NCBI RefSeq assembly: GCF_003991155.1
Contig: NZ_CP031293.1
Source of the DNA: Escherichia coli
GTDB lineage: Bacteria; Pseudomonadota; Gammaproteobacteria; Enterobacterales; Enterobacteriaceae
Reading direction: 5' to 3' (one strand)
Length of the DNA: 64,000 nt
This document shows, piece after piece, positions 12,483-15,400 of the stretch. Within the stretch, counting starts at the first letter, position 1. Every line of letters starts with the position of its first letter. The position numbers were made by a program.

Positions 12483-15400
12483 TACAAATTGCGAAAATCC
12501 AATAGATTGCGACTCCCTTGTAGATTGCGACTCCCTTGTAGGCCTGATAAGCGTGGCGCATCAGGCACTTGCTCCCCGAACGTTGAATGAATTGTGGTTC
12601 TTATGTCCGAAACAAAAAACGAACTTGAAGACCTGCTGGAAAAAGCAGCAACCGAACCGGCTCACCGCCCGGCCTTTTTCCGTACTCTACTGGAATCCAC
12701 CGTCTGGGTGCCTGGTACGGCGGCGCAGGGCGAGGCAGTAGTTGAAGATAGCGCGCTTGATTTACAGCACTGGGAAAAAGAAGACGGCACCAGCGTCATT
12801 CCTTTTTTTACCTCGTTAGAAGCACTTCAACAGGCGGTTGAAGACGAACAGGCATTTGTCGTAATGCCCGTTCGCACATTGTTTGAGATGACCCTTGGCG
12901 AAACGCTCTTCCTTAATGCCAAACTGCCAACCGGTAAAGAGTTTATGCCGCGTGAAATCAGTTTGTTGATTGGTGAAGAAGGGAATCCGCTGAGTAGCCA
13001 GGAAGTACTGGAAGGCGGTGAATCGCTGATATTATCGGAAGTCGCAGAGCCGCCAGTACAAATGATTGATTCACTCACCACCTTATTTAAAACCATTAAG
13101 CCAGTGAAGCGTGCTTTTATTTGTTTAATTAAAGAGAGCGAAGAGGCACAGCCTAATTTACTTATTGGCATTGAAGCCGATGGTGATATCGAAGAAATTA
13201 TTCAGGCGGCGGGAAGTGTAGCGACCGATACATTACCTGGCGATGAACCCATCGATATTTGTCAGGTGAAAAAAGGGGAAAAAGGAATTAGCCACTTTAT
13301 TACCGAACATATTGCGCCATTCTATGAACGTCGCTGGGGTGGTTTTTTGCGTGACTTTAAACAGAACCGGATAATCTAAAATATGCCGCCCCAAAGGGCG
13401 GCATTCGGGCTTACCTGCTGTTCTGAAGGTTGTTAACCACCAATAAATTGTTACCGGAGAGACTCCGGTTATTATTTACCTCGGTTAACAGCGCACCAGA
13501 AACAATAAGTACGATACAAAAGCACCGTATCTTCATTGTGCGGTCCATGCGAAGACCGCATCACGACAGCACCACTGGCGATATTGCCGCGATAGCAAGC
13601 GCTGTGAAACACCTGCATTTACGGCCATGGAACATCCTTTCCTTAAGCCAGCGCCCGTTTGCGAGACGGCGGAAAGGGCCGGTGTCGATAATACGCTAAA
13701 TAAACAATGATTACTCTCTTTCGCTTGACAAAAAGAGAGTTACTGGCGAGTATTGCTTTGCTGTGAAGCACCTGCGTTGCTCATGCAACACAAGCCAATC
13801 TGCTGGAAAGGCCGCGAACCAGACCAGCAATAAAAAACCGCCAAATTCGGCGGTTTTTTATTGCCTGTTAAAAGCTTATTTCTCTGGCTCAACCGGTAAA
13901 TCTGCTCGTGCGCCCCATTCACTCCATGCGCCGTCGTACAGTTTCACGTTTGGCACATCAAGTGTCGCGAGTGCCAACAAAACCACGGCTGCCGTTACAC
14001 CAGAGCCGCAGCTGACGATAATCGGTTTGTCATAGCTGACGCCGCGACCAAAAAATATCGCATCCAGTTCATCGGTCGTTTTTAGTTCGCCTTCGCGCAC
14101 CAGTTCCGTCCACGGAACGTTCAATGCACCGGGAATATGTCCGCGACGTAAACCTGGGCGAGGTTCATCAACTTCTGCGTTAAAACGTGCAGCCGGGCGG
14201 GCATCAATAATTTGCGCCGTATTTTCATGGCTTGCCAATAACACATCGGTGACTTTCACCACGGCTTCAGGATTAAACGTGGCGTTAAACTCTCCTTCCG
14301 GCAGCTCTACTGCACCTTCTTCTAACAGCAGATCATCGCGCTGCCAGCCTGCAAGTCCACCCCCCAGAATCGACACTTTCTCTACACCAAAGGTGCGCAG
14401 CATCCACCATGCTCGTGGGGCTGAGAAAAGATTACCTTCGTCATAGATAATCAGGTGCTTATCCTGGTTAACGCCTAATTCACGCATCGCCACGGCGAAC
14501 GTTTCCGGGCGCGGCAGCATGTGCGGAAGCGGGGAAGTGTGATCAGAAAGCGCTTCGATATCAAAAAACACTGCGCCGGGAATATGTCCATTCAGATACT
14601 CCTGAGCAACGTTACGATCTTCCTGTCCAGGCGACGCCATGCGGGCATCGATAATCTGAATTTCCGGGTCATCAATATGTTCGGCGAGCCAGTCGGCTCC
14701 TACAAACCATGTCGTGGACATAGGCATCTCCATTTTTGCCGGGGTTAGGCTAAATTGTCGGATGTTTAGTGAAAAGCGACAAGCAAAAGAGGCTGATTTG
14801 GCTGTCTGAGCCACAATTCTCACTAAAATTCGGATTGTATGGGCGTGATACTGAATTACATAACGTAAATTCTCACGCATAATAATTATTCGACGTTGCT
14901 AACGGGCCATTGTGGCAGGGATGAAAAATGAAAAAGTTACGCGTAGCCGCCTGCATGCTAATGCTGGCGCTGGCAGGGTGCGACAACAACGATAACGCGC
15001 CAACAGCGGTGAAAAAAGATGCGCCTTCTGAAGTTACTAAAGCGGCCTCTTCAGAAAACGTGAGTTCAGCAAAACTTTCCGCGCCGGAGCGACAAAAACT
15101 GGCCCAACAGAGTGCCGGTAAGGCGCTGACATTGCTGGATCTCTCTGAAGTTCAACTTGATGGCGCAGCCACGCTGGTGCTGACGTTCTCCATTCCTCTC
15201 GACCCGGATCAGGATTTCTCACGCGTTATCCATGTCGTCGATAAGAAAAGCGGCAAAGTGGATGGTGCCTGGGAGCTGTCAGATAATCTTAAAGAGTTGC
15301 GTTTACGCCACCTCGAACCGAAACGTGATTTGATCGTCACTATTGGCAAGGAGGTCAAAGCACTCAACAACGCAACCTTCAGTAAAGATTACGAAAAAAC

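Follow-up and report, generated by a model that had tools for sequence, protein, structure and literature searches.

An 18-bp tandem duplication in the linker of the pepB-sseB BIME-1 is confined to one Escherichia coli haplotype

The spacer between pepB and sseB in the window, the whole 64-kb stretch of Escherichia coli DNA analyzed here, carries an exact 18-bp tandem duplication within the linker of a single BIME-1 element. Derived and restricted to part of one lineage, this micro-duplication sits in an element of known kind and is most likely an ordinary copying slip. We consider it probable that one replication-slippage event, in an ancestor of part of the ST457 lineage, gave rise to the extra copy. 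The features on which the argument depends are listed below in positional order.

11160..12443, + strand: pepB (aminopeptidase B) coding sequence, from the ORF list and the RefSeq annotation of the identical region in 2016C-3878
12436..12445 and 12460..12469, + strand: 10-bp direct repeat pair CGGCGTAAAC, from a repeat search
12452..12485, + strand: y-type REP of 34 nt, in iREP orientation on the + strand, from an exact match to the y consensus pattern and its internal palindrome
12485..12502, + strand: degenerate copy CAAATTGCGAAAATCCAA of the repeat unit, in register with it and older than the duplication, identical to the unit at 9/18 positions
12486..12537, + strand: BIME-1 L-type linker of 52 nt (34 nt in the ancestral allele), from comparison with 127 y-linker-z elements
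12497..12509, + strand: IHF-like core ATCCAATAGATTG (compare WATCAANNNNTTR), from sequence likeness; its last 7 nt overlap repeat unit 1
12503..12520, + strand: repeat unit 1, TAGATTGCGACTCCCTTG, from reading of the sequence, Tandem Repeats Finder and a unit search
12521..12538, + strand: repeat unit 2, the extra copy, not in the ancestral allele, whose final nucleotide is also the G that opens the z1 GTAG, from the sequence, Tandem Repeats Finder and alignment with the UTI89-type allele
12538..12566, + strand: z1-type REP of 29 nt, starting GTAGGCCTGATAAG, from its size class and palindrome
12603..13379, + strand: sseB coding sequence, with its ATG at 12603, from transferred RefSeq annotation and the ORF frame

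The two head-to-tail copies of the unit are followed directly by TAG, and the TAG...TAG microhomology that results allows the edges of the duplicated 18-nt segment to be moved by 3 nt. Tandem Repeats Finder places the tract at 12503-12541, with a period of 18, 2.2 copies, 100% matches and no indels; it is the sole tandem repeat in the window with a score of at least 50. A search for the unit at up to three mismatches returned just the two copies, against a shuffle expectation of 0.06, and two or more copies appeared in 0 of 100 shuffles. An assembly artefact is ruled out, as 33 independently assembled complete genomes carry the duplication and are identical over 301/301 bp. The degenerate copy immediately upstream includes the 7-mer ATTGCGA, placed exactly 18 nt upstream of the ATTGCGA in the unit. 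Allele alignment finds this degenerate copy in every one-copy allele as well, and it therefore predates the duplication; it is the linker's own left half and did not arise in the event. The original prediction had described an exact 18-bp duplication with a degenerate third copy upstream, lying between two REP palindromes in the pepB-sseB BIME. The duplication is borne out by re-reading and by Tandem Repeats Finder, the third copy is real, the y and z1 REPs do flank the repeat, and the placement agrees both with the annotation of matching genomes and with the presence of two inverted REPs.

The spacer is 159 bp long and is flanked by two genes on the + strand. The TAA stop codon of pepB occupies 12441-12443, and the stem of the y REP begins 8 nt further on. 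REPs near stop codons can have translational effects. Of the CGGCGTAAAC pair, some alleles, as seen in alignment with that of SCU-109, are without one copy together with the 14 nt between the copies (24 bp). The CTAC foot of the y REP lies at 12482-12485 and the GTAG foot of the other REP at 12538-12541. The two REPs are mutually inverted, with 16-nt arms that are 94% complementary, and the minus strand of the right-hand REP bears the iREP II site GGCC^TACA, where the caret marks the cleavage position. Published REP sizes are 35 nt for y, 29 nt for z1 and 37 nt for z2 (PMC8266576), and the right-hand REP, at 29 nt, is therefore a z1.

There is one y-linker-z unit at pepB-sseB and no tandem BIME array. 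No further y-linker-z pair was found in 164 kb made up of the window and sequence of the carrier genome 2016C-3878, and a lineage-wide expansion of linkers was set aside on that ground. A scan for RNA families gave only a sub-threshold naRNA4 match on the y REP, which reflects generic REP similarity and not a known RNA family in the spacer. The same scan placed ryfA downstream, as expected. The copy of the NC_000913 annotation that we examined gives no repeat features at the pepB-sseB locus.

How far this linker departs from its class could be judged against published and sampled elements. BIME-1 is defined as a y and a z1 REP separated by a well-conserved long linker, L, frequently with an IHF site (PMC3333891). 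Our sample comprised 127 y-linker-z elements from species-representative enterobacterial genomes, with E. albertii, E. whittamii, E. coli, Pseudocitrobacter, Citrobacter and Kosakonia as the sources. Linker length in these elements was 35 nt in 78 and 34 nt in 16, and exceeded 45 nt in none; the linker consensus is AAAATCgTGCAAATTCAATATATTGCAGAAACCTT, and L-type linkers go with REPs of z1 length. Removal of one unit from the window linker leaves 34 nt, AAATTGCGAAAATCCAATAGATTGCGACTCCCTT, in which 11 nt separate the core ATCCAATAGATTG from CTAC and 10 nt separate it from GTAG. By this comparison the linker minus one repeat unit reads as a normal L linker.

The IHF-like core, WNTCAANNNNTTR, is present in 85 of the 127 elements and its position is tightly held: in 83 of these it starts 11-12 nt past CTAC, and in all 85 a stretch of 9-11 nt separates its end from GTAG. 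The duplication begins within the core, after CAA, and stretches the distance from core to GTAG from 10 to 28 nt, outside everything seen in the 85 linkers. The z1 REP is thereby displaced by 18 bp, or about 1.7 helical turns, from the core. A second IHF site within unit 2 was considered and rejected, since unit 2 is preceded by CCCTTG and not by WATCAA, which leaves one loose core only. We found no IHF occupancy reported at pepB-sseB in the accessible genome-wide IHF ChIP papers and their supplements.

Carriers of the duplication were sought among 5,426 complete E. coli genomes and counted with queries of 301 bp and 22 kb; a 53-bp junction query proved unfit for counting by BLAST, as one-copy genomes match it as two overlapping pieces. 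The two-copy allele is present in 33 of these genomes, all 100% identical over the 301 bp, and absent from the remaining 5,393. The next-best matches, among them UTI89, S88 and ATCC 11775, differ solely by an 18-bp gap (283-bp span, 94.0% identity), so that the UTI89-type allele aligns as the window allele minus one unit. Among full-length matches to the 301-bp query in the 5,426 genomes, none had an identity above 94% but short of 100%, which places the duplication in one background only and leaves no room for a three-copy form; indeed, no three-copy allele was found in the set. The exact linker sequence from which the duplication could arise occurs in 966 genomes, and the roughly 930 non-carriers among them are all one-copy. 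The K-12-type linker, found in about 3,087 genomes, differs by SNPs. Every non-carrier E. coli genome whose match spanned the locus has one copy, and the orthologous BIME of E. whittamii likewise has a one-copy linker, of 35 nt, ending ATTGCGACTCCCTT. Since E. whittamii and the other E. coli share the one-copy state, one copy is the ancestral condition and the duplication the derived one, and the element is older than E. coli.

To place the carriers by descent we used haplotype queries of 22, 25 and 15 kb that cover window positions 2001-64000. Over these 62 kb, 41 genomes are near-identical to the window, with 0-2 mismatches or a single indel per segment, and the nearest relatives beyond this group are 98.2-99.4% identical. 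The group divides into 33 two-copy and 8 one-copy genomes, the latter being WP2-W18-ESBL-08, 1517k, KOr019, FDAARGOS_1268, EC-10, H9, 24AR0376 and MMC-J-0091. The one-copy genomes are exactly 18 bp shorter, and direct checks of the gap in two of the eight aligned it at 12503-12520. Sequence type assignments have been published for 4 of the 41 genomes, three carriers and one non-carrier: MRY15-117 and MRY15-131 (PMC5430464), CREC-544 (PMC5884925) and the one-copy strain 1517k (PMC8072826) are all ST457. Carriers and a one-copy strain thus share the sequence type, and the polymorphism therefore lies within ST457. A 36-40-kb insertion polymorphism in a neighboring segment is also seen in this group, with both repeat states; it probably represents a mobile element, which would tend to be gained and lost repeatedly in its own right.

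The coexistence of the two states in a near-identical 62-kb haplotype invites a different reading, in which the locus is a hypervariable, VNTR-like slippage hotspot and the 33:8 split records repeated gain and loss. Mechanistically, an exact tandem duplication can readily lose one of its copies, and in divergence from the window the one-copy genomes do not exceed the carriers. The occurrence of the large insertion with both repeat states points the same way, albeit weakly, as a probable mobile element would have its own history of gain and loss. Against a hotspot, however, there are just two states across 5,426 genomes, and the roughly 930 other genomes with an identical, duplication-competent linker have all kept one copy. 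We regard the hotspot reading as decidedly unlikely. Single-event slippage, which we prefer, leaves the 8 one-copy members of the lineage to be explained by either one gain or repeated loss, and the SNPs are compatible with both: in a comparison of two one-copy with two two-copy genomes over 50 kb, 7 of 7 SNPs were private.

These distributions also bear on how the original prediction had framed the repeat, as strain-specific variation that might serve as a typing marker or a slippage hotspot. The cross-genome comparison that it proposed agrees with the first of these, in that the variant is restricted to 33 of 5,426 genomes and to one haplotype. As a marker the repeat is specific to that haplotype, but it is incomplete, for eight genomes of the same haplotype, including 1517k, are one-copy. 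The hotspot suggestion did not hold up, given a two-copy state in a single background and no allele of higher copy number.

The duplication itself has a straightforward candidate mechanism. The nascent + strand would reach the foot of the z1 REP hairpin after copying ...CCCTTGTAG, then unpair and re-anneal 18 nt upstream. The TAG at the 3' end of the slipped strand would find its partner in the TAG of the IHF-like core. With the misaligned duplex stabilized by the older ATTGCGA block, which is in register, the 18 nt would then be copied a second time. To weigh this event against its competitors, we enumerated all tandem duplications of 4-40 nt with at least 3 bp of microhomology that are possible in the ancestral BIME, and scored each by the pairing of the slipped nascent strand with its new template position. 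Among the 34 candidates the observed event, with the nascent + strand set 18 nt back, pairs at 12 of 21 nt and ties with two others for first rank, a standing that it owes to the in-register degenerate copy at 12485-12502. A REP foot is touched by 13 of the 34 candidates, and the foot of the z1 hairpin, at the slipping 3' end, is a plausible stalling point. The + strand shows positive GC skew over the window and is therefore the leading strand, the minus strand being the leading-strand template. The structure of the repeat, its polarity, its confinement to one haplotype and the pairing open to a slipped intermediate can all be read directly from the alleles; from them we infer slippage and stalling at the hairpin.

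Some features fit slippage less comfortably. Only a 3-bp terminal microhomology was used, although a repeat of 7 bp was available at that same offset of 18 nt, and hairpin stalling on the leading-strand template has to be assumed. In addition, the breakpoints also suit cleavage sites of RayT (TnpA_REP), and it is possible, if unlikely, that RayT cleavage and strand transfer produced the duplication in nature, where it then became fixed. TnpA_REP cleaves single-stranded BIMEs at C^T; the iREP II site, inside CTAC, is (G/T)(G/T/A)CC^TAC(A/C/G), with GGCC^TACA as a strong form, and linker sites are likewise C^T (PMC3333891). C is required as the 3' base of the attacking strand (PMC8266576). On the minus strand, the window reads GGCC^TACAAGGGAGTCGCAATC^TACAAGGGAGTCGCAATC^TATTGG: both breakpoints fall at C^T, one of them being an iREP II site and the other the sole CT in the linker, and the y REP is in REP orientation on that strand. 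By this doubtful route, RayT would bind the y REP (5' GTAG) on the minus strand and cut at GGCC^TACA and AATC^TATT. Transfer of the ...AATC-3'OH end to 5'-TACA... of a sister copy, an improbable step, would yield the junction AATC^TACA and an 18-nt duplication.

Several observations lend the RayT route some credit. Only 2 of the 34 candidate duplications satisfy the C^T / iREP II rule, the observed event included. Moreover, the carrier 2016C-3878 has an intact rayT of 165 aa at the conserved yafL-lfhA locus; the encoded protein is 94% identical to that of K-12, and the region of the catalytic Y115 is identical. The fit to C^T, however, is partly built in once one breakpoint shares the CTA microhomology with CTAC, and slippage picks out the observed event about equally well (3/34 versus 2/34). 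The rule also fits the minus strand alone, which by GC skew is the leading-strand template. IS200/IS605 enzymes, to which TnpA_REP is related, prefer the lagging-strand template; the strand used here departs from that preference, which is not an established criterion for TnpA_REP itself. No like expansion of the linker is seen in the 127 other y-linker-z elements. No in vivo system for TnpA_REP existed at the time of publication, according to its authors (PMC3333891). As slippage and RayT are nearly equal in fit, prior plausibility decides between them, and on that basis we hold slippage to be the probable origin and RayT an unlikely one.

Whatever its origin, the consequences that we infer for the duplication are modest. 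In predicted RNA folds the one-copy and two-copy alleles share a long y:z stem (-45.1 and -46.8 kcal/mol, respectively), the linker forms the apical loop of the y:z hairpin, and the duplication enlarges only that loop. Since the same stem forms in both alleles, REP-type functions at the RNA level should be unaffected. A scan of 12350-12700 found no promoter-like (sigma-70-like) site, and the sole terminator-like match that it gave falls within sseB on the opposite strand; creation of a new promoter or terminator by the duplication was rejected accordingly. Both REPs and the single IHF-like core are left intact. To judge from the sequence, the sole clear change would be the displacement of z1 from the core, and the functional effect is probably small. 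We take neutrality, or something close to it, as the most likely case, with the duplication persisting as a clonal marker; even so, a spacing held so tightly among the 85 L-type linkers suggests constraint, and full neutrality is not assured. Nil functional significance, for which the original prediction had allowed as a possibility, fits the evidence.

It is nevertheless conceivable that the duplication is adaptive, having been selected in a subclade of ST457 for an altered IHF/gyrase architecture, for pepB mRNA stability or for read-through into sseB. We think this very improbable. The change would act through the 18-bp shift of z1 away from the IHF-like core or through the longer loop of the intercistronic hairpin. 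In its favor stands the spacing: in a class in which core and z1 are otherwise 9-11 nt apart in 85 of 85 L-type linkers, 28 nt should alter any function that depends on spacing. The carriers, moreover, come from many hosts, several countries and three continents. Yet clonal hitch-hiking accounts for that spread equally well, and one-copy members of the lineage have likewise been found in several countries on different continents. The essentially unchanged RNA structure and the lack of any new promoter- or terminator-like site in the scanned interval also speak against selection.

Nothing here would surprise a specialist, and unless experiments show otherwise the duplication is an ordinary neutral polymorphism. 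It does offer a clean 18-bp PCR-size marker, useful at most below the level of ST457, where it would separate two-copy (33) from one-copy (8) genomes; the ST457-type haplotype group belongs to an MDR-associated lineage in livestock and humans. The two-copy allele is also a natural spacing mutant of BIME-1, and could be used to test the role of spacing in IHF binding, transcript stabilization and attenuation. Because of where its breakpoints fall, the locus is also well suited to experiments on whether RayT remodels BIME linkers inside cells. Were the duplication a RayT product after all, it would be an in vivo example of a BIME diversification so far demonstrated only with oligonucleotides in vitro.

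Set beside known systems, the element is a recognizable BIME-1 (RIP/RIB). It has the same parts in the same order and orientation, and its REPs match in size (34-nt y, 29-nt z1). It shares the GTAG and CTAC feet, a linker that follows the L consensus, and a core placed 11 nt from CTAC. Like other BIME-1 elements it is single and lies directly past the 3' end of a gene. It differs in linker length, 52 nt as against 33-36 nt in 84 of the 85 sampled L-type linkers (the remaining one being 25 nt), and in the distance from core to z1, 28 nt as against the 9-11 nt of all 85. Read from the sequence, its core fits the IHF consensus at 7 of 9 specified positions, whereas the L consensus fits at 8 of 9. 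With the VNTR/MLVA loci of E. coli the repeat shares an intergenic tandem array whose copy number varies and can be sized by PCR; here, however, there are two alleles only, the variant is found in part of one lineage, and there is no multi-allelic series.

The comparison with TnpA_REP recombination in vitro is closer in form. With substrate B316 of Ton-Hoang et al. 2012, the product was longer than the substrate by the stretch that separates a linker C^T from GGCC^TACA, and the junction AATC^TACA on the minus strand here is of the same form. In that work cleavage of an 88-nt BIME at positions 76 and 69 led to a product of 95 nt (PMC3333891), which by arithmetic would be the 88-nt substrate plus a duplicated 7 nt from between the cut sites. 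Those reactions used oligonucleotides in vitro and an inter-site segment of 7 nt, whereas the event described here is chromosomal and fixed, involves 18 nt on the leading-strand template, and is explained equally well by slippage. Microhomology-mediated short tandem duplications, made by replication slippage or template switching, offer the remaining parallel. As in those, the two copies are identical, a short direct repeat, here TAG, bounds the stretch that was duplicated, a hairpin palindrome lies next to it, and the event is probably a single one. The terminal microhomology at pepB-sseB is just 3 bp, and it is the internal 7-bp block of the degenerate repeat, instead of a long terminal repeat, that appears to support the misalignment.

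The TAG at window positions 12503-12505, within the IHF-like core of the linker of the pepB-sseB BIME-1, is itself a derived state, the equivalent positions reading CAA in K-12, O157 and E. whittamii and CAG in the allele of SCPM-O-B-8794. This triplet is required for the microhomology of the duplication (the TAG...TAG bounding the duplicated 18 bp), and also for the minus-strand C|T, the form of cleavage site considered for RayT (TnpA_REP). The exact 18-bp duplication event could have occurred only in genomes that have the UTI89-type linker (n = 966).

Our coordinate arithmetic places an extra 36-40 kb, within the segment equivalent to window 24001-49000, in five members of the haplotype group (41 genomes near-identical to the window over 62 kb): NZ_CP121153 (E57), NZ_CP158447 (CS6L), NZ_CP054388 (1517k), NZ_CP091665 (KOr019) and NZ_CP069501 (FDAARGOS_1268). 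The size of this insertion varies from genome to genome, and both repeat states, one and two copies of the 18-bp unit, are found alongside it. It is probably a mobile element.

Two Rfam matches and one further REP were noted in the window:

12438-12482, minus strand: sub-threshold match to naRNA4 on the y REP (40.3 bits versus a gathering score of 59.5)
13378-13682, minus strand: full-length match to the ryfA small RNA (319 bits)
60854-60890, plus strand: lone REP (GTAGGCCGGATAAGACGCGGCAAGCGTCGCATCCGGCA) in another intergenic region

Annotations of matching genomes place timP, a small toxin gene, within ryfA. The naRNA4 match probably reflects generic REP similarity and not a separate RNA gene. 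The REP at 60854-60890 is the sole other REP foot within the window.

E. coli-type BIME-1 sequences were also seen on tiny contigs of assemblies labelled as other taxa (loci L058, L117 and L114-L116), namely Desulfosporosinus sp. OT (262-bp contig), Methylobacterium frigidaeris (261-bp contig) and a Collinsella MAG; these look like enterobacterial contamination.

The BIME carries a second indel polymorphism, at window 12436-12469 (loci L005 and L099 of other genomes). Some alleles, including those of SCU-109 and 'E. coli' SCPM-O-B-8794, lack 24 bp: of the two 10-bp direct repeats CGGCGTAAAC, one is missing together with the 14 nt that separate them. The y REP thereby loses its left arm, so that the pepB stop codon falls within the remnant of the REP loop. 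Coverage in the search with the 301-bp BIME region was below 80% for about 413 of the 5,425 genomes, most of which probably carry the deletion allele. In the window, only 8 nt separate the pepB stop codon from the stem of the y REP downstream of it (12441-12452); REPs no more than about 15 nt from a stop codon can reportedly reduce translation of the upstream gene.
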